The translations under genes and the position numbers were made by a program. Shown here piece by piece: positions 8,847-63,540 of a stretch of DNA of 64,000 nucleotides. Below the pieces are notes generated by a model. The model worked only from the letters and a program-made list of their open reading frames with translations, ran no database searches and had not been told where the DNA came from. The stretch's first letter is position 1, and every line of letters begins with the position of its first letter. This stretch comes from Owenia fusiformis (lineage: Eukaryota), in assembly GCA_903813345.2 (NCBI GenBank), contig CAIIXF020000001.1, forward strand, positions 18,848,001-18,912,000, read 5' to 3'.

Positions 8847-10508
8847 TGGTCTTTTAAATATTTGTTTTTTTTAATTTTTGCTACTTCTAGAATAACATAC
8901 CAATAACCTCATTTCATGCATCTTCGCACACTCGGTCTTTACTGCTTTCACTATCTTACCAGCTGAAATGAGGTTATTAGTATTATCACCACCTACTGTA
9001 TAACATGAAATATTGCTGTGGATATAAAGTTGCCGATTGCCGAATGTAAAACAGAAACGGCAACATAAAATTCGGAAATATAATTTAGTAATTGAAGATC
9101 GATCTTAGTGGGCGATAATATGGTAGTTGTCTAACGTGTGTCAACTTACCGTAATAGGGTAATTTTCTAACCAGTATCAACTTACTATACTTTAACAAAA
9201 ATCATAAATAAAATACGATAAAATCGAAGCTTTATTCCTCAGCATTACAATTACAATAAAAAGTTAATAATAAAAATGTTGCAGTTAAAATGCATGCAGT
9301 AAATTCTACAAAATATTAAAAGGATTGTCATGTTAAAAAGTTAAAATGTCAGAAGATATAATTGTATCCAAGTGCTTTGGAAATCCCAGTATTGAAAGTT
9401 TTTAATCCCGATATTAAAAGTTTTTAATCCTGGTATTAATTGTCCTGAGTCTATCGAATGCGGGTATTATGTGAATAAATCACTCAAATTGTCACTCATA
9501 ATGTCAGGATGTCAGGTTTTCTGAGTCAGTCAAATGAAGGTGATTAAAATTCAGTTGTAAATCAAAATTATATTCGGGGTGTTAACCATCAATATTTTAT
9601 TTGGCTTTACATTTAGGGGTGTCAGGTAGGCAAACTTTTATTCGGCAATAACAATTTTAATCCAATTCGGAAAATAAAGCACCCGGATTTAATACATGTT
9701 ATACAGTATTTAAAACTAAGTATAAACTCATAAAATATAAGCCTTTTAAACTAGAACTAAATACCCCAAGAACATGCAGGCCTCACAAGATGTTGATAAT
9801 GTTAATTCATTTCCTAAACTGTTACATATGAAAGTAAATGACAACCTGAAGATATGTCCCTAATACTTCTCTTTACACATACAATAATGTCAGATTCTGG
9901 AATTTTCAGGTATGTCATACATGAATCATCATTATTAGGAGTGTGACAGAATCCCAAATCATGATGGCCATGATGCAATAATGCTTATTATTACCACCTT
10001 GCCGGGCCAGTTCTAGGGGTTTTAGTGCTAGTTTAGAAGGCATTCATTTTACTATATCTACCTGAGCAATATGTGATGCCTTCGACCCTCGGTCCAATAT
10101 TTCACTATATTGCCCTTCGAAATGACGTTATTGTACTAATACATTTCTTAAAAATGATTTGCATCATCTGTGAGGACAGTCACATATTACCTATCAATAA
10201 CTAAACAAACCCCAAATGACATAATATTTTGATTATTCTCTGAGTGGATGGATGATATTTTTTTGGCTCACCCTGTAATGTCTAGTTTCTTCTCCAATGC
10301 CTACATGTGTGAAGTATATTGACCGATGCTGGGAATATAATTTTCAAAGGTTCTACAGCAACTCTAAGATGATTGGATACAACAGAGTTAGTACCATGGT
10401 AATTTACCAATCACAGTCATTCAAATTGAAAGTGGCATTCTTTATGAGTTTAAAGATGTACATGTATTCTGTATTATTCAATAAACCTTGAGACAACATT
10501 CAAGTGAA

Positions 10509-13500
10509 ATGATATGGGAAGTTGCTGCAATTCTTCTAGGATTTATTTTTCTCAAATATATTTGGGACCATAGAATAGGAAGGAGGAGATGTAAAATTGC
10601 AGGACCACGTGGGCTTCCTCTAATAGGGAATGCACTGGAATTTATGCAAATATTCCCATTTGATCAATTTACATTTTGGAGACAGAAATATGGAGACATT
10701 TTTAAAATTCAATTATTGAATAAAGATATAGTGATACTAAATGGAGATGCGGTCTATGATGCCTTAGTGGGTCAATCTGATGACTTTTCTGGGAGGCCTG
10801 ATATACCACGATTGCAGTTGTTTAACGATTGTGAGGACATCGCCACAAGAAATCCCGATAATAAATGGAAAGACTACAGAAAAATATGTCATCAAGGATT
10901 GAGACAGTTTGGAAAAGGGGTTGCACATATAGAAAAAATAACAATGCATGAGATAGAGGATTGTATAGCTAAATTTGAGGCGCAGAATGGCGCTTTTAAT
11001 CCCAACATTGATATATACAGATCGGTTACAAATATCTTAATGATTATGGTAAGATCATATTGAGAAATAATACACAGATATTTTTCTGAGAAAATACTGT
11101 TTCAGAAATCTGAAAGTTAAGACAATGCCTGAATTTTTAACAATTTATTTTTACAGATTCTGGGTGAAAAGTTGGACAGCTCAGACCCTTTGATTGATAA
11201 GCTGGCGCAATGTCAGGAAACACTAGACCAAGCATTTGGACCAAAATATCTCTCACTGGATATCATTCCATGGATACGATACATCCCCGGTGTGAAAACT
11301 TTCTCAGGATTCAAGGACTCAGTTGCATCAGTCCACAAAGTGTTCAGTGATATCATCAAAGAAAGGAAGGTATGGGTTGGCACCAGGGGATTTGAGGGGC
11401 TTCAGTGAACACTTATTAACCCCCCCCCCCCCCATAATATTAAAAAATTTGTGACAAATATGAAAAACATTTCTGGGAGCAGAAATCTTAAATTCTCAGC
11501 AAACCCCTTAAATTTTCAAAATTATTCTTATTTGTTCTCAGCAAAACTAATCAATCGTTAAGAATGTTAGTTCGTAAAACAGGCAAACACTGTTTAAAAA
11601 TTGAAAAACTAATAAATATATGAATATGTTACTTAGATGCAGTTGCTAGATGGACAAGATAAGGCTGAGGGAATATTAGACATGCTGCTTGCTACACAGG
11701 AGGAGAGGAAGGGAACTGACAAAAACATATCAGACAAAACAATGAATGGTCTCATTCAAGATATGGTTATCCCAGGTAAGGCAACTAAAGAATAATATTG
11801 ATTCGAACATGACTGTATTTATGCCTTCTATAAACTGTGAACAAAGTCAATGCTTCAGCTGGGTTACATTCGAGATTAATTCCCCTGCTCTGTACTAAAT
11901 GTTTTGTTCAGTGCACTCATCCCCCTCTCATCTGCAAAATGGCAGGGAGAAATAGTCCAGAGCCAAAATTTTCTATCGGAGCATTTGTAAACCGTAATCT
12001 CAATAATTTCAATAACCAGAACAACGGCAACGCCAAGGCGTAGCGAATCCCATCGAACAGCTATGGATGGCATTTTTATTTTTACAAACAAAGTATATAG
12101 CAAAAATGGCCACCGTCTACCAAAAGTGTCATTAGACCATTTGCCATACTTATAGTATTCACATACCAAATATGAACAAAATCGCTCCACTACTTTTCGA
12201 GTTATAGTAAAATGCGTTAAAATGGCGGCCATTTTTCAAAATGGCCGCCTTCTACCAAAAGTGTCATTAGACAGTAGTGTGCCATGCTTACAGTATTCAC
12301 ATACCAAATATGAACAAAATCGCTTCACTACTTTTCGAATTATTATAAAATACATTAAAATGGCGGCCATTTTTCAAAAATTTTTTCAAAATGGCCACCT
12401 TCTACTAAAAGTGTCATAGGATAGTGTGTCATGATTTTAGTATTCACATACCAAATATGAACAAAATCGCTCCACTACTTTTCGAGTTATAGCGAAATAC
12501 GTTAAAATGGCGGCCATTTTGAAAAATGGCGGCCATTTTGAAAAATGGCCGCCTTCTACCAAAAGTGTCATTAGACAATGTGCCATCCTTATAGTATTCA
12601 CATACCAAATATGAACAAAATCGCTTCACTACTTTTCGAGTTATAGTAAAATAGGTTTAAATGGCGGCCATTTTTCAAAATGGCGGCCATTTTTTAAAAT
12701 GGCCACCTTCTACCAAAAGTGTCTTTAGACAGTGTGCAATGTTTATAGTATTCACATACCAAATATGAACAAAATCGCTCCACTACTTTTCGAGTTACAG
12801 CAAAAATCGTAAAATAACGCGTAAAGGCCGCCATATTTCAAGATGGCTGCCATGTACTCCTTTAATATCTACATTTCTAGCTTTATTAATGTCCTATATA
12901 ATTTTTTTACATCTAAAACATATTGCTATTACAGTTTTACATATTGCACCTAAATTACTGTAAATTCGGCACTAAAATGGCCGCCATTTTGAAATGAGCG
13001 GCCATTTTGAAAATCGGCTTTCGAGCAGAACTTCTACCCCCAAAGGGTATATGTGTACAAAATATTAACAAAATCGGGCCAACGGTATTTGAGTTATTGC
13101 CCGGACGGACGGACGGACGGATGTACGTACGGACGGACGGACGGACGTACGTACGGACGGACGGACGGACGTACGTACGGACGGACGGAGGCGTTCCCTA
13201 TATCCCTCCGAACTTCGTTCGATGGGATAATTATCAATGTAGTAGATATGCGTGAAACCAATAAAATAGGCCCAAATGTCAATAAAAAACTTAAGCCAAA
13301 CAGCTGAACGCTTTACCGGAAGTAGAAATGAAAAAGTGGAAATGAACATCGAAATTGATGATTTTGCAATATTCTGGTGAGTTTTCATGTTCGAATCGTA
13401 ATATAGAACTCAGAGCAGGGCTACTAGTTTCGAATACACCCCTTAGGTCTTTTGAACCCCTCACTCCCTTCGATCGTTCGGGGAAAACGTTTGTGCCTTA

Positions 13501-25573: not shown

Positions 25574-26287
25574 TTATCTAGCTCAATACCAATGAAAACA
25601 CTATATTGCCACTCATACATTTAACATTAAATACTGCATGTTTTTCATATATCACAGTCACACTGAAATTTTTTGTACATTAACATCAATGCAGCTAGGT
25701 ACTACAAGTAATACATGTATTTAATTGACTCATCAATGAATCAATGTATCAATGAACTGATCATGTCAACAAATTGCTAACTGACAGTATTATATCTTAA
25801 GAAGGACTACATGTACTATATAATATACATTTGTGTATTTTAGTTAAGTGGGAAAGAAATACCTATTTTTGTAATTACTGTTATATAGTCATGTGGAGTT
25901 GTAATAAATATGTTATAAAATAAATTTTTCTTAGGAGATTTTTGACGAAATGTTTACATTAAATGTATAGAATATAGACCTAAAACTAAAACTTAGATGC
26001 AATCCTTAAAATGATTAGATGCAGTGCAACATAATTCTCTCATGATTTTCCACATGACACCATTATACTCATACACTTTAGTTAAAGCCAATGTAGCTGG
26101 GTAAATGTATGATGATGGATGATAGTACAGTAAAACCTGCGAACAAGGAACACTCTCCGATCCTTTCATTATTACTAAATGCATTCACAAATACTTTATC
26201 ACAGGTTCCTTCATTTTACTATGAGTTTAACTTAAAACTACCTAGTATGCCCAGGATACTACCACAATCTAATGTTAAATCAAAATT

Positions 26288-26552
26288 TCACTTTTGACCT
26301 ACGCGCTGACCTTCCACCAATCAACGAGCTTGAAGAAACATACGCCAAATGCGTTCTAATTAAATATGCGTATGTCATTGGTCAATTCCGGGCTCAATGA
26401 TGACGTCAGAAGGAATGACCATATAAAGAACGTCGGTCAAATTTGGCCGACGAACACTGATTGCTGCGGTGAGTTCACAGGTTTATTTTAGTTTGAAAGA
26501 GTGAAGACGAAGCTCTCTTTTAAGAAGTGAAGTCAAACGAATGCAAAGGGTA
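26288..26552 (+). mobile_element. 5'-truncated copy of the 367-bp AcademH-type element
   Basis: Near-identical to ~6035-6299; ends GCAAAGGGTA. Confidence 0.88.
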
Positions 26553-27609
26553 TTCAATTTACAATCTAACTGAAAAACATGGACAACTTTAAATTTATTA
26601 TGAAAATATCAAAGATTTAAGGTATACACTCACACATATGAGTTGGATTTACACTAGCAAGCTAAGACGTCTTAGCTAAAACGTTTTAGCGTTAAAACGT
26701 TTTACAAATGTAATGTAAATCCAGATTTACTCAAGAGCTCTCGGCTAAGAGTGCTTAGCTAAAGCTAAAGCGTTTTAGGACCCTAGTCATAGCCAAGACG
26801 TCTTAGCGTTAAAAACAATTTACAAGCGAGTGAAAGCGTTTTTTTTTGTGTTGCGTCGAACGAAACATTTGAAACTTTCCATTTACATAATTCGCATGGT
26901 CCTTTATTTTGTCTTATCCCTTGTTCCCAATATCATCCCATAATTATTGAGACGAACTTATTTGCCTGGCGATTTATCATAATCCTAATTTATGCATAAA
27001 ATCTTCCTGCTCTCTTTCATGCTTTTAACAATGCTGTCTTTAAAACATATTTTTCTGACACCGATGTATTCTTTAGTACAAAGTCGAGTACAAAGTATCG
27101 AAGCGGGAAAGGAATAGCTATATTGACTGAACCGTCCTTCAACCAGTACTGAACTGCTTTTTTCATTTTACATGTATACCTACCTTGGTTGGGCCTGAAA
27201 AAAATGTTGAGCCAAAAAAGGCCTTGAGGCCCCAAAAAGTTATCCTCGTATGATGTTATTTGTTGTTATTTTTTCTGATTTGGATATTTATTTTTTCTTA
27301 TTTTCTTGCATACGAGGGTCATACACACTCACCGCATCTATATTGCGGGAAATGCTTTCCTGGCCTGTCTACCCAGAAAAAGACAGAAAATCAGATAAAA
27401 ATAAATAATGTGAATGGGCGATAATAAGTGAATACTTACTATTTTGAAAGTTTCTCAAAGAATGCTTTCGTTTCCTCGTCTGTTAAGGGTCTCATACTGA
27501 AGGCGCAGTAACTAAAATTCGATAAGACGTCTTTTGAATAGTAGTCGATCTATGTTACAGCAGTAAATTTGTTTTTAATGCAAGATATTTATTTATATTT
27601 TTGGAGCAC

Positions 27610-27665
27610 ATTTCCCGGAAGCGCTAATGCGCAGAATCAGTGACCTAGAAATGACGTCACTTTGA
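27610..27665 (+). promoter_or_regulatory. Putative promoter of the SVBP-like gene
   Basis: CpG-containing patch with ETS-like CCGGAAG (27615), TGCGCA and a full CRE TGACGTCA (27652-27659), ~360 bp upstream of the ATG. Confidence 0.45.
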
Positions 27666-28014
27666 CATTACCTGAGTAACGGCTATGTAAACAACATGGA
27701 GTTATCTGTATATTTCAGTATTTGTATACACTTTTGATTGAGTGATAATTGCACACGAATATTCTATATTTTGAAATATAAATGCATGCCTCTACACTAA
27801 ATACTCATTGTGACAACCGTCAAATCAAATCAAAAGTTATGTATAGCAAATGCTCCTAAGCTTGGATCTAAATTCTTGAATTGGATGTCTGTCAAATCAT
27901 TCATTGAGATTAATTGAGTGACAGGTCTACAGGAGGGGCTGAAGATGGAATGTGGGTGATTGGATTTACACAATTGAAATCCATGATATATAGACGCGTT
28001 GTTATACTATAACA

Positions 28015-30626
28015 ATGACAGTTCCCGATGTGATATCCCGAGTTGCTGTCATGAATATCGGACTGCCTAATTCAAGAACAGAACTACCAGAGTCATCTGG
28101 ATACAGAAGATTCCATAGTGCATCTAGTCATCATTCTGTTCTACTCCAAGAAGACCAAAGTGGGCTGCAACCCATTTCAATAAGCGTTCTTCCTTTGCAT
28201 AGACCTCTTAGTTATGATTCACTCCAATCTTCAAATCACCAAAGGGTACCACCTGAATCAAATATTCAAAAAGGTTCATTGACTGGAGCTGAAGAAGCTG
28301 ATATAATTCACCAAGCCCTAAATTTGAATAGGTTTAAAATTGTACCACCAGTAGAAATCAAGCCAAATGATGCAGTTATAAAACAGAATGCCTGGGAAGG
28401 GGATGATTATTTCCAAGCATCTGTTCAAGAAACAGGAACAAAAGATGAAGGTATTTATCAAAACAATATTTGAGAATCATATTAATAATTTATCATTTAT
28501 ATATATACTCATACTGCAAGAGTTTTGCAATATTCTGTGTTCATAATATATCCCAATAATCATGGGCTTTCAACAGATAAATAAATTAATTTAGTTTTAA
28601 CATATTATGTTTGTTTTTGAAATCTTGGCATTCATTTTTGGCTAGTGTTTATAATCATTAAGACATCAAGTTTAACTGATAGAAAATTCACTTTCAGATG
28701 ACTCATGGTCCATTTCTACAAAATCCAAAAAGAAGAAGAAAAAGAAAAGAACCAAGTCAGCTAAGTGCAAGAAAAATTCCAAAAAGTCTACAAATAAAGT
28801 TGATAAATCACACAAACACTCCTCAATTGATAATAACTCATGTAATGGAGGACTTACACTTGGTGTGGTTGCCGCTGCTGCTCCGGTAACAAAAAAGACC
28901 CCTCAAATATCTACTACTCAACAAATAAAAAAAGTAAACCACAAAGTTCAGTCGAACACTACTGAAGAACCTGAAAAGGGCAGTGAGAGATTATTAACAA
29001 ATGAGAGAATACTCAAACCCCAACACTCTCTATGTCTTCCCAAAATGTCAATGTATCCGAGTGCTTCCCCGAGACTTTCAAAATCTCAGAGCAATAGCGC
29101 ATATAATAGCTCAAATTCATCAATGCTTATAAGATCTCAGGATAACCATGCACATGAAAAGCTAAAGGTGATGAAGGTCTACTTATCAGATAAGCAGTCC
29201 AATACAATAAAATTGCTAGGGTTGGATTTACCTTGTGCTCCTCCAGCTACACCAATGCCAGGTGAGAAATAGAGGTTATACCTTGGGACATTGGAGGGAG
29301 GGGTTGTATATTGGGTTTATCCTTGGGACGATATCATGTCAGGATATATGTACATGCATAGGATCTAACAATATATATTGCAAAAAATTGGTTTAATTTG
29401 ACAACAGGCATTTAATTTGAGGAATTTGCCATTTCAAGATCATTGGGGTTATTTACTTTGGGGATAGATATATCAATTTACACTACATATATGAATATTT
29501 TAACTAATGAGTAGCATCCAGCATATGCCCTACAGTGCATCAATACAGTTGATTTAATTAGGATTAAGGTTGGCCAAGTTAAACTAATCATGATTATGTT
29601 GATAATTAGATGAATATCTGTCATGTAGCCTTGTATACAGGCATCAGCTAGACCTACCTTAATTTACATCTTTCCACAAAGTTAATTGATTTGCATGTTT
29701 CTGTTCTTGTAGATCAACTCTGTCGCTATGAATACATCCCCAGTATGACTGATGTCAGGGTAGGTTGTCCTTTTAAATAATGAAATCTTAATTAACAATA
29801 ACAGTTAAATCAGTAGAGTATCCAGATACCTACCATAAAGTTAAGGAATTCTACATCTATTACGTCACCTCCACAAGTAGTCTCCAACTTTTTTGTGGAT
29901 GGTGTTTAGTGGTTGGTGTTTAGGATTCAGTAGATGGTGTGCAGCATTCAGCAGTCAGTGTCTGTAACAAATGGAAGGTTGTGACATTTTGCATATTAAT
30001 GCCTTGTTGATATTAATGACAATCACCTGTAGTCTTTCTGTTCCCATTTGCAGTCACAAAGGGCCCTCAAAGTACGTCTGAACACTTTGGAGAAGATAGA
30101 GGGCCAGAGAAAGGCAAAGCAACGTGCAGAGCAAGTGAAACAGGAGCAACAGAATCGTAAAGATCAACAGATTGAACTGAAGAAGTTTCAGAGACTTCAG
30201 GTATGTTTATGATGATTTATGATTCCTCATCTATGGATGGCTTGTACTGATCAAGAGAACTCTATAAAGTTGTTTATCCTTAGAAATACCTAAATCATGA
30301 AGTGTGACCATGAATTTCAGTTTTGAACTTGCCAAGCTGCTTAATATATGATACTTTCAGAGAAGAGGAAGTCTGTGATGAATTTAATAAATCGAAAATA
30401 TTTTGGTGTAATATGATGAAATTAACAGATTTCCTTGAAGACTTTCTATACATAAACATGTATATTCGTATTTCATTTTATCTTGAATGAGAAAGTATTT
30501 GAGAATATTGTTTGCTTTTAGATTTACGCCCTGAATAAAGTTATGACAGAATTTGAAAACAAGAATTTTGAAGAGTTCTGCAAAGTCAAAGGACTGAATA
30601 CCTCATGCAAGAAATCAAAGAAATGA
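28015..30626 (+). CDS. SVBP: 432-aa low-complexity protein with C-terminal SVBP/CCDC23 motif (SVBP-like, orthology unproven)
   Basis: Exons 28015-28450, 28698-29261, 29713-29759, 30054-30200, 30522-30626 (1299 nt, one open frame, GT-AG). The C-terminus [30 protein letters not shown] matches human SVBP [30 protein letters not shown] (recalled from memory). Lys-rich tract SKKKKKKKRTKSAKCKK in exon 2. Confidence 0.8.
29858..30008 (-). mobile_element. Short (~130-170 bp) HINE-like dispersed repeat
   Basis: Reverse complement begins AACAAGGCATTAATATGCAAAATGTCAC, as at 41497 and 58695. Confidence 0.6.
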
Positions 30627-31291
30627 AATGCCCATGTTGGAAATGCATGATGTGAACCCCATGGCCTCATTGTGACAGAGCTACAGGGATTAACTACTCT
30701 ACCTAACTGACATATGGCTGATGTATTCAAGGACTGCTGTTAAAACTGATGGTACATGGGTACAATCATATAACAAATAATATCATTTAAAGGAAAGCTG
30801 ACCCCAAATATTATTTATGCTGCTGTATCTTTTATACACAATACTTACTACCAATTTTAATGAAATATTTGGGTCGGTGATAGATAAATCATTTAATATA
30901 GAAGATTGTCATATCGAGCTACTTTCATTCAAAATGGCCGTCACACAGCTTACTTTAGTATTGCAGGTATTGGAGAAAATGCAAGATACTGTATCATAAT
31001 GTGTAACGCGCAATAATGTGTAACTCTAAAATGTGTAACAATAATGTTTAACCCCAAAATGTGTAACAATGAGTGAAGTGGGTAGTCAGTTGGCTGTTAA
31101 TACAGTACCAAATGAGGAAATATTTGAGTTTACTACTCCAATTCTCTCATTAAGACACAGTCTTAAAGTACTTTCTTGAATCCTAAATGTACTGGATTTT
31201 CCAATAATTGGTTGTGATAAACAAACATAATAAGTGTGATACAACATGCAGTATAACTGCAAATGTAGATCTTGAGGAATAACCTTTTTAC

Positions 31292-31355
31292 TAGCCTTGC
31301 CCAAGTCGGTATTTTTTTAATCAAGATAAATAAGAGACCGGCTTGGGCAAGGCTA
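31292..31355. mobile_element. 64-bp AcademH-type mini-element with 9-bp TSD
   Basis: CCTTTTTAC|TAGCCTTGCCCAAGTCGGT...ACCGGCTTGGGCAAGGCTA|CCTTTTTAC (TSD 31283-31291 and 31356-31364). Confidence 0.85.
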
Positions 31356-34300
31356 CCTTTTTACAAATAACTAGATATTATCCAAAAATAACTGGAATAC
31401 CAGAACCAGAATATAGTTGAAATAGGTAAAGTTCCTAATGGATGTGATGTGATACATTTCCAAATTTAGAAATCAGTATGTGCTTCTTACTAGATGTTAT
31501 GTATTTTTATAATTTTACACTTTGTACATGGCCACATTTCAATGTTAGAATATTTTAAATCATTAATGGCTCAAGAATCCATATTTTATATGGCCAATAC
31601 CCATAGTGTTAAGATGGTAGTTGAATGTGAGTTTTCTAGATGTGATATCAGTTTAGCCTGAAAGCCATGTCAGATTATCATACTTTATTAGCTGAAGCTC
31701 AATTAAAATTTTTGACTCAGTCGGACAAGAGTAAGTCACCAAGCCATAAGTCCCCAAGCTGAACAACTTTTATAAAGAGCATTTTTTAAAAGGTATTCAG
31801 ATCAGTATGGGTTTGCTCTAGGAATAAAGTTAATAGTTTTATGACTTATTAATTATGATGTGAAAACTTCTTAATTATGATGTGAATATTTTTCAGATTT
31901 TTGCATGAAACAGCTGATAAACATTTTGTACTTGTTGTATTTTCAGATGAAGCATTAAGAGGTTTGATCCTTTTATAATGTATAGCTCTTGCTTTTACAA
32001 ATTGCATAATATTGTTATGTTTGTTGAACTCATTTTTTGTTTTATATGATGTATACTGTGCAATATTTAGAAATAAATACATTTTATAAATAAAAAAAAC
32101 GATTGTTATAATGTTACGATGAAATAATCGGAACGTAAGCCACCAGTAGAAGTTATTGTTTACAATATTTTTAACTCTTATGCCTTGGTGAATAAGTCCC
32201 ATTGGCAAGTCTCATTTTTCAATTATTATATGAGTTTGGACATTTTTCCATCTTCAATAACTTCACTTCGTGTCAAGGAGATCAGGTATCTCAAATCTTT
32301 GTTCAGAAATACTAGAAAATGGCAATATGGTGGTGACATAATAATACTTACAATCATCTATTAAAACAGAAAATCCAGGCATATAAAAGCCAAAAACTGG
32401 TGAAATATCTTTCCAATTCATTCCCGAATTATTCCAAATTTCATCTTTTATATTTGAATAAGTTGTACTTCAAAAAGATATCAAAATTATCAAATTGCCG
32501 TTTTCTTGACCAGAATACACTCACTGGGGGTCATGCTAAAAAAACAGGATAGTATACGAAATACATGTTTAAACTATAGCACCAAGCTTTCAAACAGTAG
32601 TATCCATTACTTTGGTTGAAAATAAAAAAATAGATTTTTAAGAAAAATACAACATCAGGCAGCCAATTTTGGACTTAAAGGACAACTGAAATAGGTTTTC
32701 TAAACTTGCAGCTACAAAAATGCGGTTTTCTTCATTGTAAGCCCAACGTAGAGTTCTTGCGTTAGCCATTAAAAAAAGAAATGTTTGATAACTGTTAATG
32801 GTCATTAATAACGTAATAAAATTAACTGACCAATCAGATTGGCCCCCACGTGATAAGTAACGTCATACATAATATATGGTTTTAATTTATTGGTTCCTTG
32901 GTAATCACGACGACACGGCAACCATATGATTGTTGTGGAAACAAATAACAAAACATCTTGGTATTATGATGTCATGATTTAATGGACCAAAATGGGGCAT
33001 GTGGGGACTAGTGAGAGATCACGTGGGGGCCAATAACGTCACAACCTATTCGGATATTGGTTATTAAGCAGCTATAACGATCGTTAGAGTGAAATAATTT
33101 TCACAATACTGATGAGAAAACATATGCAAATACATTTATCAAAAAATTATATTGATTCCTTTAGGTCAAAAATACCATTTCATATCTGCTTTAATGAGTT
33201 TCAAATGGTGTGGAGATGCCACTAACCCTAAACTGGCACTTAAAGACACATTTTGGAGGTTTGAATTTGAATTGAACCATTTGAATTTGAAGGATTTAAA
33301 TGTGGTACCAATGTGTAGACAGATGGACGATTTGAAGATAACAAACAATAGGCCAACAGCTCCTAATACATTGATAAAGTGAGCTTCAATCTAAAGTAGA
33401 GGTAAAACATGGTTGGATTTTCTTAAACATGTTCTTCAGGTTGGATTATCAAATCACAATCTTTTTACAACCTTTAATTTACTAAACAGGATTTGATTGA
33501 AATATAATTTTCATTTTGAGGATGACTGGAGAATGATTGGCGTTAACAGAATTCACCATTGTACATTGTAGGGCACTCAATGTCTTCTTTTCAGACAATT
33601 TAACTAAGAAATGACAAAAAAAGATGAGTGTATTTCACCCACTTTATTAATTTTAAGATTTCACATGTAACACTTTAACAAACATAGTCCAGGATACAAG
33701 CCAGAAAACCATTAGCACTTTAAGCTGAAGCTAAGTGCCTTATAAATTATAAACAGATCTTCGTTAGGTATCTAGCTTCTATGCAGGACTAAGAAAACAT
33801 AATCAACAAAAATATCAACTTTGGTATTATCATAAAAAAATTAACCTTGAAAACAATCAATTTTAAATTCAAATTGTGATATTCATTTATAATTACTTCA
33901 TCAATTGGCATTTCTATAAAAAAATAGGATAAAACCTTTTAAATTATTTAACAATTGTGACTCAGAGTATTTTGATGGAAATATTGTACTTGATATGGAA
34001 CATTACAGTATTAAGCTAGTTAAATCCACTTGAATGAATGTAAGTTGATATTTATCATAGAAATATTAATAAACTTCTGTGAAGTACACAATGAAACAAC
34101 ATTTAATATGATGATTTATATATGTTACCTTATATACAACTATTTCCCTATACAGTGTACATATATAAACTAAACAGGTATAGTTGACATTTCCCAAATT
34201 TGGAAAAGATCTGTATATTTGAGTTTATACCAGCCAAAACCATTTTCAAATAATCAAATAGGTTTTTGAGAATAAAATAAGTTGATAATAGCCAAGATAT

Positions 34301-38200: not shown

Positions 38201-41200
38201 TTATGTAATATTTCTAACATTTCAGATGCTATGGTAACATCACTTGATAATGAGGTTTTTACATTTCACGTTCTTAATGAGTTAAAAGGAAGTTATTCTC
38301 CCTTTGCTTTAGAGATAAATAGTCGCATGAATTTGTTTAGAAAAATTATAACTTAATTAATTTAACTCCCCCCCCCTGACAGCCCCCATATTTGAAGATT
38401 TTGGGGAAACCTGGCAAAATACATTAATTATTAGGTTTCAGAAGCTATATGATGGCCCCCAGTGGCCCCAAGAATCTATACAGGGGCCCCAAGTGGCCCC
38501 CAGAAGCTATACTGTGCTCCCCAGAAGCTATATGTTGGCCCCCAGAAGCTGAATAATGGCTCCCAAGAGCTATACAGTGGCTCCCAGAAGCTATACAGGA
38601 AACCCTGTGGCCCCCAGGAGCTATACGGTGGCGCCCAGAAGCTATACAGGGGCCCCCAGTGGCCCCAAAAAGCTATACGGTGGCCCCCAGAAGCTACATT
38701 GGGGCCCCCAGAAGCTATACTATGGCCCCCAGAAGCTATACAAGGGCCCCCAGAAGCTATATTATGGTCTCCAGAAGCTATATGGTGGCCCCCAGTGGCC
38801 CTCGGAAGCTATATGATGGCCTCCAGAAGCTAATTAGTGGCCCCCAGGAGCTATACAGTGGCTCCCAGAAGCTATACAGGGGACCCCAGTGGCCCCAAGA
38901 AGCTAAACGATGGCCCCCAGAAGCTATACAGGAGCCCCAAAAAGCTACATGATGGCCCCAAGAATCTATATGATGGCCCCCAATGGCTCCCAGAAGATGT
39001 GAAGGGCCCCCAGTAGCCCCTAGAAGCTATACGGTGGCCCCCAGTGGCCCTCATAGGCTATATGATGGCCCCCAGAAGCTAAATAGTGACCCTCAGGAGC
39101 TACATGGTGGTTCCCAGAAGCTACACAATGGCCCCAAGAATCTATATGGTGGCCCCCAATGGCTCCCAGAAGCTATAAAGGGCCCCCCAGTAGCCCCTAG
39201 AACCTATACGGTGGCCCTCAGTGGCCCCGAAAGCTATATAGTGGCCACCAGAAGCTATACAGGGGCCCACAGTGGCTCCCAGAAGCTAAACGATGGCCCC
39301 CAGAAGCTATGCAAAGGCCTGCAGAAACTGTACTGTAGCCCCCAGAAGCTATACAGGGGCCCCCAGTGGCTCCCAGAAGCTATAAGATGGCCCCCAGAAG
39401 CTATGCAAGGGCCCGCAGAAACTATACGGTAGCCCCCATAAGCTATACGATGGCCTCCAGAAGCTATACAGTGTCCCCCAATGGGCCACCATATAGCTTT
39501 GGGGGCCACCGTATAGCTTCTAGGGGCTACTGGGGGCCCTGTATAGCTTCTGGGAGCCATTGGGGGCCATCATATAGATTCTGGTTGCCATCGTGTAGCT
39601 TCTGGGGGCTGCTGTATAGCTTCTGGGGGCCATCGTATAGCTTCTTGGGGCCACTGGGGTTCCCTGTATAGCTTCTGGGTGCCACCATATAGCTCCTGGG
39701 GGCCACTAATTAGCTTCTGGGGGCCATCATATAGCTTCTGAGGGCCACTGGGGGCCACCATATAGCTTCTGGAGACCACAGTATAGTTTCTGTGGGCCCT
39801 TGTATAGCTTCTGGGGGCCATCGTTTACCTTCTGGGGGCCACTTGGATCCCCTGTATAGATTCTTGGGGCCACTGGGGGCCATTATATAGCTTCTGGGGG
39901 CTTCTGGAACCTAATAATTAATGTATTTTGCCAGGTTTCACCAAAATCTTCAAATATGGGGGCTGTCAGGAGGGGGTTAAATTAAGTTATAATTTTTCTA
40001 AACAAATTCATGTGACTATTTATCTCTAAAGCAAAGGGAGAATAACTTTCTTTTAACTCATTAAGAACGTGAAATGTAAAAACCTCATTATCAAGTGATG
40101 TTACCATAGCATCTGAAATGTTAGAAATATTACATAAACCATATGATGAATCATCTTCACTTCTAATCATGCTTTATACTTCAGATACTTTAAGAATCAA
40201 GAATATGAAGAATATGATGAAAATCAGACTATATGTATACTATTTATATGAATCATTGAAAGTGCATGGTAAATTATAAGATTGGATCTTTAATATACAG
40301 GGTCGAGATAACCGTTTTGACCCCTGTGAATGATAGTCAAAATACATGTAACCTTTCCACATACTTATTAGTTCAGTTCAATACATGCACATTTTTACTC
40401 AATAAGATTGAAACAACTATGGTTGTTACTTTTTTTGTTAATTTAATATTCTTTTTATAATTGTCAAACAATTACGTTCACAGTAGCTGCCTCCAAAGCT
40501 GGATAATTTTGTTAATTCTGATCCAATTTTGAAGATTTGTTGTCTCTTTAATGTTGCTTATATCTTCCACTCATCAAATAAAGGACAAAACTATGCACAC
40601 ATTCTGTCATACGGCCTCAGTTCTAATAGATATGTTGCTATACTAGGATATTCTGAACCAAAAATGGATTGATGACGTCACAATTAATGCAAATTAGCTA
40701 ATTTGCATAACTTAATATTGTAACCATATAGCAAATTTAATAAGGTTTAATCAGATACCAATATCATCTCTATAGACCAAATAATGGCGAAGCTACATTG
40801 ATTCAAGACTCCAAGGTAAGATGTATGTATATTATTGTCAAATAATGACATTCACGATAGCTGCCTCGAAAGTTACATAACTTTCGTAATACTGATTCAA
40901 TTTTGAATCTGTTTTCACTTTTATGTTGCTTATACCTTCTACTAAAAGAATAAAGGACAAAATCTTTCAGAAATTTTGCCATACGGCCTCAGTTCTAATA
41001 GATATGTTGCTACAGTTGGAAATTCTGAACCAAAAATAGATTGATGACGTCATAAGTTATGCAAATTAGATAATTTGCATAATTGAATATCAGAAATTTA
41101 TTGAAAATTTAACGAGGTTCAATTTGGTACCAATATCATTTCTATAGACCAAATAATGACAGAGCTACAAATGATTTAAGATACCAAGGTAAGATGTCTA

Positions 41201-50729: not shown

Positions 50730-53700
50730 TCAAGTATACATCATTTCAGCCATTGAAGACATACTTTTAGGAATATAAACAAAATCTTCAAAATAATATG
50801 CCAGTTCATCTACAGACATTTCATCTAGCCTTGCTTCTTGTGAACAAGACCTTGTATGTGTCCCCGTAGGACTGTTTCCTGGGCTTTGTCCAATTTCACT
50901 TGGGGTATTGCCAGATGTGTTTACTGCATTGGGAAAGACAAGAGTTGGTTTATTAGATGCTTCATTCAGATCGCAAGATTTTGTTTTGTTGAAATGATCT
51001 TTAGATGCCAGGTTATCTGTAGCAACACTACTGAAATCAGTTGGATTAAAAGATGCACCAAACACACTTGATCTTGGACATATTGAATCTGTAGGACTTT
51101 TTGATTTCTGACGCGACATTGCCAGCTTGCTCGAAAACGGTGCTAATTTGGATTGCTTTGCCTTATGATATTTTAGACGAGCTGATCGAATCACATTACT
51201 CCTGTCCTTTTCCCGGGTTATTTTCAAGCGTGCCTCACGAATGATGCTAGTTTTTGCACTTGGTTCACACTTGCACAACTTTGCATAGTTGAGTTCTGGT
51301 GAAGCGCCAGACGTGATGATAGTTTTGTTACAATGACATGACTTGTTACTGCATTTTTCCTCAGTGAGAGTGAGTTTATCTATGCGTGATAAAGGGTAAG
51401 GGTCTGATTTACGCTTAGCTGTTCCACTCTTTGCCTTGCCTAAAGGTGGAGATAATTCCCTCTTGCTACTAAGTGCTGGCTTCCTGCAAACAAAGACAAA
51501 GTTTAGTATACAAATACATGTATATATTTATATTTAATTTATTTAAACTTATCAGGGAAGTTCTCTGACTTTAAATTGCATGGCCACATTCACTATTCAG
51601 TAGGATATAATGATTTATTCAAATTCAGTAACAACAGGCCTATCAGTTCACAATATTTGAGAAGAAGTACATAAAAATATCAATGATTGCCAAGTTAAAA
51701 TATAGTATTAAATCATTTCATATTCATTAAGATCAACAAAATTTAGATGGATATAAATATTTTTAGAGAAGATATATAGCCACCCATTTAATCTTTTTTA
51801 TATAACAAAACCTGCTATTATTCCCTCTATCATGAAGCAGTTACAATGGCACTACCACATTAACAGTGGAGACGATTAGGTCGTTTAACGTTTATTACGA
51901 CAATTGACGTCATTGTGCGTTAATTGCCAGGTATCGCGTTGATTGACTTACTTCAAATTCAAATTGATTTAGACGTTATTTTCGTTGCATTTCATTTCAG
52001 AAAAATACTTTTTGGTGATATTTATACATACAGATAAGCTTAAATTTTTAATTATTTAGCATGCAGAAGAACATAGCTTCACTTCTTTCTGTTTCAACCA
52101 GGCTTTTAGAAGCAGAAACACTATAGTATAATCATTTGAACAACTGACGATCAAATATCAGGATGGCTTATTTTGCGGTAAACACACGCAAGAGAGGCAT
52201 CTGGGACATGTTTATTACAATTTGGGCAAGATGTTTTTACTTTTATTTGAAGCATTGGATAGATATCTTCAACTTCCATGTGGGAATTGTGTTTTCTATG
52301 ATGCAATATTTTTTTATAAAGCAATAATGAAGACGTTGTCGAAATATGGAGTCGCGACTCCATTAAAAAGTCGCAAGGACTCTATAGCATAATCATCACA
52401 GTCTCATTGCTTCGCCAATGAATTTCTATTATGGACAAATTGTGTTGGTATATTTTATTGAACAAAATTAGATTTCCATATTGATGATGAAATTAAATAC
52501 AACATTTTGAATGTTTCATCCTAGAACGGGCCCGTATCGCCGATTTCTCCCGAGTGCATCTGACTAAAATAAAGTCCACTTCAGAATTTAACGAAATATC
52601 ACAATTAGAAGAAAAAATATAAATTTGTTCTTCATATTTATGATGATAAGAACGTCTTTTATCATGTCCTTGAACAATTTTAATGATTGTTTTTACATTT
52701 AATATGGAATTTAATTTTTTTGAATTTAATTTTTAATTATAGTAATTGCTGAATATACGTAACACTGCGAGTCGGATCCAATTCATAATTTATGATAATG
52801 ATATACAGGTTAAAAGTCAGTAGGTCAGACGATTAGCCAATGAGGGTAGCTCAAGATTTATAAGTATAAACATTTAGAAGCTTTAGATGGGGTCTTCCGG
52901 GGGCCCGGTCCGGGGGTCTTATTCATGTTCTTATTTGCAGCAGAAATCTACTTCGATTTAATAATTAATCAATCTTTTAATCAGTATATCGCAAATATGT
53001 ACTACTAGTTGAACATCACATGTCATATGTTAAAAATTGTCACCTCAATTCACGGGCTTTAATCTAGTAAAGGCTAAAAAGACAAACTATCTGGGGAGTG
53101 CAGATAGTATCTAGCCGATATCGTTCTTGAAAGAGGTCCGTGATTTCAAGACGTAAGTCTGCCAGTTATGAATCGAAATACGCGTAAATAAATTATACAG
53201 CTGTTTATAATTTATAATAGACGCTTTTTATCTATTCTCACAATTTCAAACATTGACAATTTCATGAAGAAGTACTAATGAGGTAGGTACATTTCGGCCA
53301 GTTACCTTGGTAATGGGCGATAATAAAAATACGACCTAGCCCGTACGACAATCAACGTTCCCACACGTTGATTATACGATTACACATCAATTGACGCATC
53401 AATTGATTACACATGCGCAATTGAAAAACATAGAACGTCAATTAACGTAGTATCCGTCAATCAAATACAATGACGTTAATTGACGGGATAAACGTTAAAT
53501 GACCTAATCGTCTCCACTGATTAATATTTGACAATTTCCTCTTTTAAAAGTAATATTCATCTCCTTTCTGACATGAACTGTATATTTTGAATATTACTGT
53601 ACAGGCCCGTAGCCAGGATTTACCAGGGGGGCGGCTTTACCAAGGGAGGAGTTTTTGCCGAGGGGAGGAGCTTTTTGACAGTTTTGGTAAAAAATCATGC

Positions 53701-62000: not shown

Positions 62001-63540
62001 TGAGAGATTAGAGATATTTTTCAGTCTTGGTGTGTACAATCACAAAATCAACTAGAAGTGGCTACTACAGTACCTTTACAACAGCCAATGTAAAGAAAAA
62101 GTTCCAATGGACCCCATATTCTGATACATGTTCCTGGTAATCTGTTGACTTCACTGACAACAATCTCACCAAGCCCAGAAGTATCAATGGACTGCATGAC
62201 TTGATGGACCTCAGCAAACTTGATAATGCTGACCCCACTGAACTGAAATAAGAGATGAACATGTACATGAAAAAAAACATCAAGCGTTTGCTTTGAATGG
62301 CAACTTCATGACATGATCTAAGGAAATTTAAGATGACAAACACTCTTGAAAATTTAGATTAGACATCGAAGAACAATTATGTAAATAAGCTGTGGTAATA
62401 AAATTCAAATTGTTAAAAATCATTAATTGACGGAACTACATTATAGCCAATTTTACATGTTATAGATGATTCGAAGTACACATTGATTGTTATTTTTTTC
62501 TTAAAGTTAAATTCCCTGGTTAAACTGCTGTTTAATATTGCCTCAAATAATAACAAATGAAAAGAGTACATTAATTTGAACAAGCACCTACCTATGTTGG
62601 TCATGTTTTCCTTTGGCTTCCCTGCTAACAATGGCGTTAGATATCACAAAAGCTCCGACTCCGACATCCATTAATCCACTTCCATATGTTTCTACTTTGG
62701 CAAATCTCCGTGGGTATATTCTAAAATCCACTGCTAGAATTGATATGGCAGTAGCAATGTTTACATAAGCCCTAAAGCCTGAGATGAAGGGCCTGTGTGC
62801 TGACAATTTCTTATTTAGAATGTCCAAAGTATTTGTGATTGTTCCTCCATTCTTAGAAGTCTTGTAACTTGTGATGGAGCGGGAAGCTATGAGTATTCCT
62901 AATATGAACATGAGCAATGTTGTAAGAATCTGTGTTGTGTGGTCTGCCAGCAGAGTGAAGCATAGCTGAACTGGGAGGATTAGCATGGAGAAGTCAAACA
63001 ACAGCTTCAATCTAAAAATGATATGTAATGTTGCCGATTATATAAATGTACTATAATATGAACAATTATATACTTTCTTTTACTTTAAAACTTATCATGA
63101 TATTAAGTTTATAAAAACACAGTATAATAATTTGTCACCACTTCGTGGTGGTGATATTGAAAGAAATGGTAGAATTGGCTGATTGTTTCTGAAAAATGTT
63201 TTGAAGAATATAGTATTATTAAAGCTATCATGATTATTGTATGCATGCGTGTATATATGTACTCATATAAGGATTGGCATTTTCACAGCTACTGTAGGGC
63301 TGCATATTACATCAGCTTCCAATTATTTCCTCATCAAAAACACTTGTAGAACATTTAAAAAACTTACCCTATAAATGTTTCTGATAGCTGTGATATTCCA
63401 AACCATGCAGATGCAACATCTCTTAGTAGAACAGCAATTGGAGCAGTTGTAACAACCAGGGCAATCTCCCCTACACTTGTTCCAGTACAGTTACTCACAA
63501 ACTCCTCCTTCAATTGCTTGTATAGTGCAGCATCAGCCAT
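59017..63540 (-). CDS. PIGW: GPI inositol acyltransferase PIG-W (GWT1 family), 7 coding exons, 499 aa
   Basis: Exons 63540-63368, 63011-62592, 62242-62074, 60847-60597, 60248-60107, 59651-59561, 59270-59017 (1500 nt). Motifs: [91 protein letters not shown]. Confidence 0.96.
60940..61832. mobile_element. Degenerate TIR element in PIGW intron 3
   Basis: CpG-rich block with imperfect inverted ends: AATTCTC..CTCTTCAA / TTCAAAGAG..GAGAATT and AATATTTCCCATGATGCAGTTCGCG / CGCGAAATGCATAGTGGGAAAATATT. Confidence 0.5.

Follow-up and report, generated by a model that had tools for sequence, protein, structure and literature searches.

A long-form SVBP (CCDC23) gene in Owenia fusiformis and its relatives in other invertebrates

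Why should SVBP (small vasohibin-binding protein), which in humans is a chain of 66 amino acids (aa), form the end of a 432-aa reading frame? The question is raised by a gene at positions 28015–30626 of a 64,000-nucleotide (nt) stretch of Owenia fusiformis DNA (assembly GCA_903813345.2, contig CAIIXF020000001.1, 18,848,001–18,912,000 of the forward strand), referred to throughout as the window, by whose numbering all positions are given. A preliminary description, made from the letters of the DNA, had taken the gene for a giant SVBP, a paralog or isoform with a long disordered, lysine-rich N-terminus. The follow-up analysis favours, with a probability of roughly 0.85, a plainer answer: what lies here is the ordinary and only SVBP (CCDC23) gene of an invertebrate of lophotrochozoan type, encoding the long form that most non-vertebrate animals possess.

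Gene structure and SVBP identity

Joined on the plus strand, the five exons amount to 1299 nt, that is 432 codons and a TGA stop codon with no internal stop. All four introns run from GT to AG, the exons start in phases 0, 1, 1, 0 and 0, and in-frame stops precede the ATG at 28015. Together with the spliced joints described next, this bears out the single 432-aa frame of the preliminary description, and likewise its remark that scans for open reading frames (ORFs) miss the motif owing to the small exons; the gene is hidden in exactly that way, and the core motif of SVBP quoted there straddles the junction of exons 4 and 5.

Four sequencing runs (X2, X6, X22 and X23) were compared over positions 26000–31500. 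Run X6, which consists of contigs and was only guessed to be RNA, is taken as such because its contigs carry spliced joints, X2 looks like DNA or unspliced RNA because it covers the introns without joints, and X22 and X23 are on record as RNA. In the X6 contigs all four introns are removed exactly as predicted: record 10 joins 27913–28448 to 28696–28884, and record 11 joins 28903–29259, a 48-letter piece at 29711–29758, 30053–30198 and 30520–30824. The joint of intron 1 (28448|28696, cut +2) is also carried by two raw reads of X22 and that of intron 3 (29758|30053) by one raw X22 read; the joint of intron 4 (30198|30520) comes from X6. The proposed exon linkage is in this way confirmed by the joints of all four introns in X6 and of two in X22, and the gene is correctly predicted and expressed. 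Its true transcription start lies between about 27618 and 27913. At the other end, X6 records 12 and 13 span 30795–31200, and the first AATAAA or ATTAAA stands ~1076 nt past the stop codon. The gene is composed as follows.

27913–28014, plus strand: 5′ untranslated region, minimum extent; X6 contig record 10 begins at 27913 and runs unspliced into exon 1.
28015–28450, plus strand: exon 1, from the ATG to the GT donor; aa 1–145 and the first base of codon 146; fast-evolving N-terminus.
28698–29261, plus strand: exon 2; aa 146–333 plus one base of codon 334; rich in Ser and Lys, with a net charge of +23.
28727–28774, plus strand: lysine/arginine (K/R) tract KKKKKKKRTKSAKCKK; aa 156–171, within exon 2.
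29165–29260, plus strand: conserved block KVMKVYLSDKQSNTIKLLGLDLPCAPPATPMP; aa 302–333, upstream of the Pfam SVBP domain; aligns across phyla.
29262–29712, plus strand: intron 2; phase 1, GT..AG; position common to many relatives; joint present in X6.
29713–29759, plus strand: exon 3, 47 nt; aa 334–349, DQLCRYEYIPSMTDVR; holds the conserved YEYIPSxxD motif and an in-frame ATG at 29745.
30054–30200, plus strand: exon 4; aa 350–398, SQRALK...; predicted charged helix leading into the SVBP core.
30522–30626, plus strand: exon 5 including the TGA stop; aa 399–432; predicted vasohibin-binding core of SVBP.
30627–31200, plus strand: 3′ untranslated region; at least to 30824 on the spliced X6 record 11, probably to about 31200.

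Exon 5 alone (34 aa) matches Pfam PF15674 (CCDC23/SVBP) with E 6.3e-9 and 36.1 bits over profile positions 36–58 of 63, the gathering score being 27 bits, and it matches the human SVBP chains in the PDB with E about 2e-5, window aa 399–419 corresponding to human residues 39–59 with 16 of 21 residues identical, as counted on the alignment; the SVBP motif is thus beyond chance. Exons 1, 2 and 4, each scanned singly against Pfam, gave sub-threshold chance matches only (SIN1, SPATS2-like, DUF819, DUF4551), and exon 4 aligns to the N-terminal half of the region that Pfam matches in the family. Compared with a profile built from 52 long SVBPs, the spliced product reaches 263.8 bits in an alignment over aa 30–426, and its best BLASTP matches, in Mytilus and Ostrea, reach E about 1e-45 over aa ~185–426 at about 40% identity. 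The columns EIYALNKxMTxxExxxFxxF are invariant or nearly so in the 52 relatives, and the window protein has the same residues except for a Q in place of the E before IYALN. It is, as the preliminary description had proposed, a member of the SVBP family, and the SVBP domain probably takes up its last ~60–85 aa.

How the human protein relates to the long ones becomes apparent from a profile that was built on the last ~104 aa of four relatives (profile A1), on which residues 5–61 of the 66-aa human chain align at positions 43–99 with E 9.4e-15, so that human SVBP corresponds to the last ~60 residues of the long proteins. Vertebrate SVBP/CCDC23 (the human 66-aa chain; PDB 6j4o, 6nvq, 6ocf and others) thus shares the C-terminal helix core with the window protein, but the human chain has no counterpart of profile positions 1–38 (PCAPP...YEYIPS...SQR) or of the ~320 aa that precede them in the 432 aa of the latter. 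In the crystal of the human complex only SVBP residues 26–60 are ordered, and SVBP stabilises two helices of VASH2, according to PMC6642083. It is with this ordered, vasohibin-contacting helix that the conserved core of the window protein aligns. A small size of ~66 aa is found neither in the window protein nor in the 72 proteins described below, and since proteins with PF15674 of 239–637 aa exist, small size does not define the family.

Long SVBPs and their conserved extension

Is the length of the protein a peculiarity of this gene? A comparison of exon 2 with 1.84 billion representative sequences returned 20 relatives at E <= 0.001, nearly all aligned to its last ~65 aa. Four of these are full length (Patiria 524 aa, Capitella 452 aa, Lottia 239 aa and a Logan protein of 545 aa); all four end in the PF15674 domain, and the three that are named bear the UniProt name "Small vasohibin-binding protein". 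Fourteen of the 20 are unspliced gene calls in which, as read from the sequences, the match ends right after TPxP and a G follows, and two continue through YEYVPSMxDIR and break there. Reading through the exon 2 donor of the window gives PMPGEK, and as the read-through G is what a phase-1 GT donor gives, the exon structure with a phase-1 intron after TPxP is common to many of the relatives. Exon 2 was also compared with proteins of 329–2000 aa, where none of the 884 candidates examined scored, probably because the protein itself is absent from that collection or because low-complexity words crowded the relatives out.

Profile A1, searched against proteins of 185–2000 aa with only the 7998 candidates that shared most words being scored, gave 72 matches, each of which (72/72) carries a precomputed PF15674 assignment. 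These proteins measure 239–637 aa with a median of 454, and 58 of them reach at least 400 aa. Those with a named source come from molluscs (bivalves, gastropods and one chiton), the annelid Capitella, the brachiopod Lingula, echinoderms (sea stars, urchins, a brittle star, a crinoid and a sea cucumber), three hemichordates, corals, Nematostella and the sponge Oscarella, seven phyla in all; no vertebrate, arthropod or nematode appears among them. Among the named matches no species has two gene loci, multiple entries being isoforms of one LOC. Some of the proteins have been auto-named SVBP, others are entered as "uncharacterized" or misnamed PRRC2C-like, mst101(2) or PH domain-containing. The same profile matched 11 proteins of 56–184 aa, all of them, by reading, C-terminal pieces of long forms or truncated calls; they include three that agree fully with the C-terminus of the Asterias protein, three from corals, and others, resembling oyster and mussel proteins, in which the N-terminus is read-through.

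The window protein shares its architecture with long SVBPs of Patiria miniata (XP_038061613.1, 524 aa), Capitella teleta (ELT94353.1, 452 aa), Lottia gigantea (XP_009060506.1, 239 aa), Pinctada imbricata (FSP39_024853, 432 aa) and Magallana gigas (435 aa): a variable N-terminus, a K/R tract, a KVxKVYLS...PCAPPATPxP block, YEYIPSxxDIRSQR, a long charged helix and the SVBP core, with an intron after TPxP. The database entries are automatic annotations, none of which, so far as the literature searches go, has been the subject of a study, and no close relative of the window protein was found among them. A maximum-likelihood tree built on the conserved C-terminal region (45 rows, without the near-duplicates from oysters, corals and isoforms) places the window protein among the lophotrochozoans, weakly paired with Capitella (90/83, not starred); its highest identity, 59% over 125 columns, is to Mytilus. 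The tree recovers echinoderm and hemichordate subclades, cnidarians and bivalve groups and broadly follows taxonomy, Oscarella being oddly placed on a long branch. A single-copy ortholog shows this pattern when its lineage has no close relative in the collection.

These results bear directly on the view, taken in the preliminary description, that the gene is a lineage-specific giant paralog or an alternative isoform beside a normal short SVBP, which would give vasohibin a special location. A product 6.5 times as long as the 66-aa human chain invites that view; however, long forms are the rule in the seven phyla, no named species shows a second locus, the short matches are fragments of long forms, the gene tree tracks taxonomy, and among the joints listed the SVBP gene has only its four constitutive ones. 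The giant paralog or isoform is therefore very improbable, as long SVBPs are common outside vertebrates, and the claim of novelty is lost at the database level, where long forms had already been deposited, several of them under the UniProt name SVBP. Regarding the literature, no paper on an invertebrate or long SVBP was found, though part of the search rankings was swamped by papers without the SVBP term, and the functional and structural work on SVBP that was found deals in its entirety with the 66-aa vertebrate protein. The locus itself is hence no discovery; it is the long form, present in public databases, that appears under-described.

The distribution of the long form can be set beside that of vasohibin, which PMC4866520 reports for animals ranging from humans to placozoans and as missing in nematodes and hexapods; the taxa with a long SVBP fit this reported distribution. 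In trypanosomatids a vasohibin without SVBP has been described (PMC11761321).

Some relatives deviate in their own ways (P0087, P0069, P0049, P0053 and P0064). The model from Acropora cervicornis joins SVBP with a Cdc42-like GTPase (PF00071) and is probably a merged gene model, a Dreissena isoform X2 skips the PCAPP block, and the SVBPs of the caenogastropods Nucella, Babylonia and Littorina are only 265–274 aa long and do not possess a strong K/R tract.

Which parts of the extension are conserved? Adjoining the SVBP domain is a block KVxKVYLSxKQSG...PCAPPATPxP...YEYIPSxxDIRSQRxxKxRL, present in the window protein at aa 302–358 as KVMKVYLSDKQS...PCAPPATPMP...YEYIPSMTDVRSQRALKVRL with PCAPPATPMP at aa 324–333, and many of its columns are invariant or nearly so in the 52 sequences. 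Further upstream, the K/R tract of the window protein holds 14 K/R in its best 20 aa, a density matched by none of 200 shuffles, and lies 168 aa before PCAPP, within the family range of about 155–205 aa; of the 53 proteins examined, 38 have a tract of at least 10 K/R in 20, the median distance from it to PCAPP being 169 aa. The rest of the extension evolves fast. Its first 295 aa together score 16.5 bits against the family profile, which none of 300 shuffles reach, and aa 146–295 score 9.2 bits (0/300 shuffles). For exon 1 by itself the score is 1.7 bits, and since 23 of 299 shuffles attain as much, this amounts to no detectable homology. The ~50 aa before the SVBP domain and the K/R tract ~170 aa further upstream are thus conserved from cnidarians to echinoderms and molluscs, and the first ~145 aa are not detectably conserved.

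This conservation also speaks to a second alternative, namely that the functional product consists of only 88 aa, begun at the in-frame ATG at 29745 (Met345) through an internal promoter or leaky scanning, with the 344 upstream codons dispensable. Such a product, mentioned in the preliminary description, would have an extent like that of vertebrate SVBP, as the human chain begins (Met1) at about position 39 of the profile, directly behind the SQR block, and exon 1 shows no detectable conservation. Against it, the position of Met345 is Leu in 32 of 52 relatives and Met in the other 20, the block just upstream belongs to the best conserved stretches of the family, and the K/R tract keeps its position. 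Furthermore, the depth of X22 is similar on exon 2 (2.13) and at the 3′ end (1.99), and no pile-up of read starts is listed in intron 2 or exon 3, at a coverage too low to exclude a minor short transcript. The in-frame ATG and the length of 88 aa stand as described, the start codon is not conserved, and an 88-aa functional product can be given very little credence.

Several observations weigh against the reading of the locus as an ordinary long-form SVBP gene with a conserved extension. On the side of transcription, the two X6 contigs are separated by 18 nt (28885–28902) inside exon 2, X22 reaches a depth of about 0.5–2 on the gene with the first mate on the minus strand throughout, and X23 has no reads on it; expression of the gene is low in the samples examined. 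On the side of identity, the Pfam scan of the gene covered the exon pieces singly and not the joined product, and exon 4 alone did not match CCDC23; in four orthologs PF15674 is covered at positions 1–60, and the window protein, scanned by exon pieces only, aligns to them there without gaps. Vertebrate SVBPs fell below the threshold in the profile A1 search of 56–184 aa proteins; that vertebrate SVBP is short is taken from the PDB chains and from general knowledge. The co-occurrence with vasohibin is drawn from the literature and not from this genome. As to the extension, 15 of the 53 proteins, mostly shorter than 330 aa, have no strong K/R tract, so that the tract is either not universal or the gene models that go without it are truncated, and the N-terminal signal is in part compositional, because the reversed sequence still scores 9.4 bits.

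Neighbouring sequences

A neighbouring gene on the minus strand (~27288–27655) is transcribed away from the SVBP gene. Its reads, with the first mate on the plus strand and a depth of about 47, end sharply at 27616–27618, which places the two genes head to head with at most ~300 nt between this end of the reads and 27913, the first covered base of the SVBP transcript. The neighbour's first ORF (27439–27549, minus strand, 36 aa) begins MRPLTDEETKAFFEKLSK and has no Pfam match; it may resemble the N-terminus of NIP7. A search of the whole window against Rfam gave no matches at the gathering score.

Two intervals in and near the gene are covered far beyond it. At 26184–26551 all four runs show a very high depth, the summed contig depth amounting to up to about 477,000 (X2) and the raw X23 reads numbering 288 and 178 on the two strands, and hundreds of reads run into unlike sequence at 26288, 26503 and 26552; this looks like a dispersed, transcribed repeat. 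Within intron 3, at 29864–30047, X2 has about 17,000 of summed contig depth, 42–49 raw reads lie mostly with the first mate on the minus strand, and many variable internal joints and indels occur at 29888–29966, so that the interval has the look of a family of repeats whose GGT-rich core varies.

Elsewhere in the window, exons of two other genes are found at 62588–63037 (minus strand; GWT1/PIGW-like, PF06423, E 6.1e-38) and 10485–11063 (plus strand; cytochrome P450, PF00067, E 6.6e-18). On both strands of 38453–39671 overlapping open frames of 110–152 aa consist of repeated units (PQKLY / PEAI / PRSYT...), so that the interval looks like a tandem repeat open in several frames and not like a gene. 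The longest open frame of the window, at 50730–51527 on the minus strand, encodes 265 Ser/Lys-rich aa without a Pfam match and is probably a large exon of a gene.

Possible roles of the extension

What might the long extension before the core contribute? By composition, with 52 Lys and 51 Ser in the 432-aa product, the SVBP part is indeed preceded by the long low-complexity Lys/Ser-rich N-terminus noted in the preliminary description. Its description as disordered finds partial backing: the mean hydropathy of aa 1–300 (0.404) lies below the charge–hydropathy boundary of 0.431, a rule of composition only, with which disorder fits, and in an AlphaFold2 model of the relative P0047 (244 aa, 57% identical to the window protein over the conserved part; 52-row alignment) residues 1–110 have a confidence score (pLDDT) of about 50; nothing further supports it. 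In the same model the conserved block, residues 111–153, is predicted at pLDDT 69–88 with short strands and a turn of helix, and residues 155–231 as a single helix of 77 residues at pLDDT 96–98. A Foldseek search of the P0047 model, which one long helix dominates, against the PDB gave nothing at E <= 0.001 (best E 1.7), and the ESM Atlas returned no usable match for its residues 100–165, the conserved block.

The label of a coiled coil for exon 4 was dropped, as the exon has few hydrophobic positions (61% of its residues are E, K, R or Q) and its equivalent is modelled as one continuous helix. A charged single helix would fit better with composition and model.

Binding and activation of vasohibin have been shown for human SVBP. 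From the vertebrate VASH–SVBP structures and the strong conservation of the core, we infer that the window protein binds vasohibin as well: its C-terminal helix would insert into vasohibin, stabilising and activating this tubulin detyrosinase. For the remainder of the protein, suggestions are weaker. The long charged helix could act as a rigid spacer, the conserved block beside it could make an additional contact with vasohibin or tubulin, and the K/R tract on its putatively disordered arm might, as the first choice among its possible roles, provide electrostatic affinity for the acidic surface of microtubules. The preliminary description proposed that the protein could tether vasohibin to microtubules, cilia or the nucleus; targeting to microtubules or to the nucleus by the extension may occur, but is less certain than vasohibin binding.

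The nucleus enters because the K/R tract may alternatively be a classical nuclear localisation signal, by which the long form would hold vasohibin in the nucleus or serve a nuclear role independent of vasohibin. Six overlapping matches to K-K/R-x-K/R at aa 156–162 and the conserved position of the tract would agree with such a signal; on the other hand, basic tracts in disordered regions also bind the acidic tails of tubulin, and the disordered regions of vertebrate VASH1/2 govern how these enzymes behave on microtubules and tune microtubule binding, as stated in PMC9750192. The two roles are inseparable by sequence alone, and the nuclear one is regarded as possible but rather unlikely.

Tentatively, and as one possibility among others, the ancestral animal SVBP can be imagined as a protein of ~450 aa in which a vasohibin-binding helix, a small folded block and a K/R tract on a disordered arm would jointly direct the detyrosinase to, or adjust it on, microtubules or in the nucleus. 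Vertebrates would then have lost the arm, their 66-aa SVBP being a shortened derivative that keeps only the helix, and its function may have passed to the disordered tails of VASH1/2.

Across sponges, cnidarians, molluscs, annelids, brachiopods, echinoderms and hemichordates, the product of the SVBP gene is about 450 aa long and has two conserved features that lie beyond the Pfam domain. Should the ancestral SVBP have been long in this sense, most animals would regulate tubulin detyrosination via a part of SVBP that is unstudied, and if the two features act on vasohibin or microtubules, they would offer a handle on how detyrosination is targeted and on why vertebrates manage without them.

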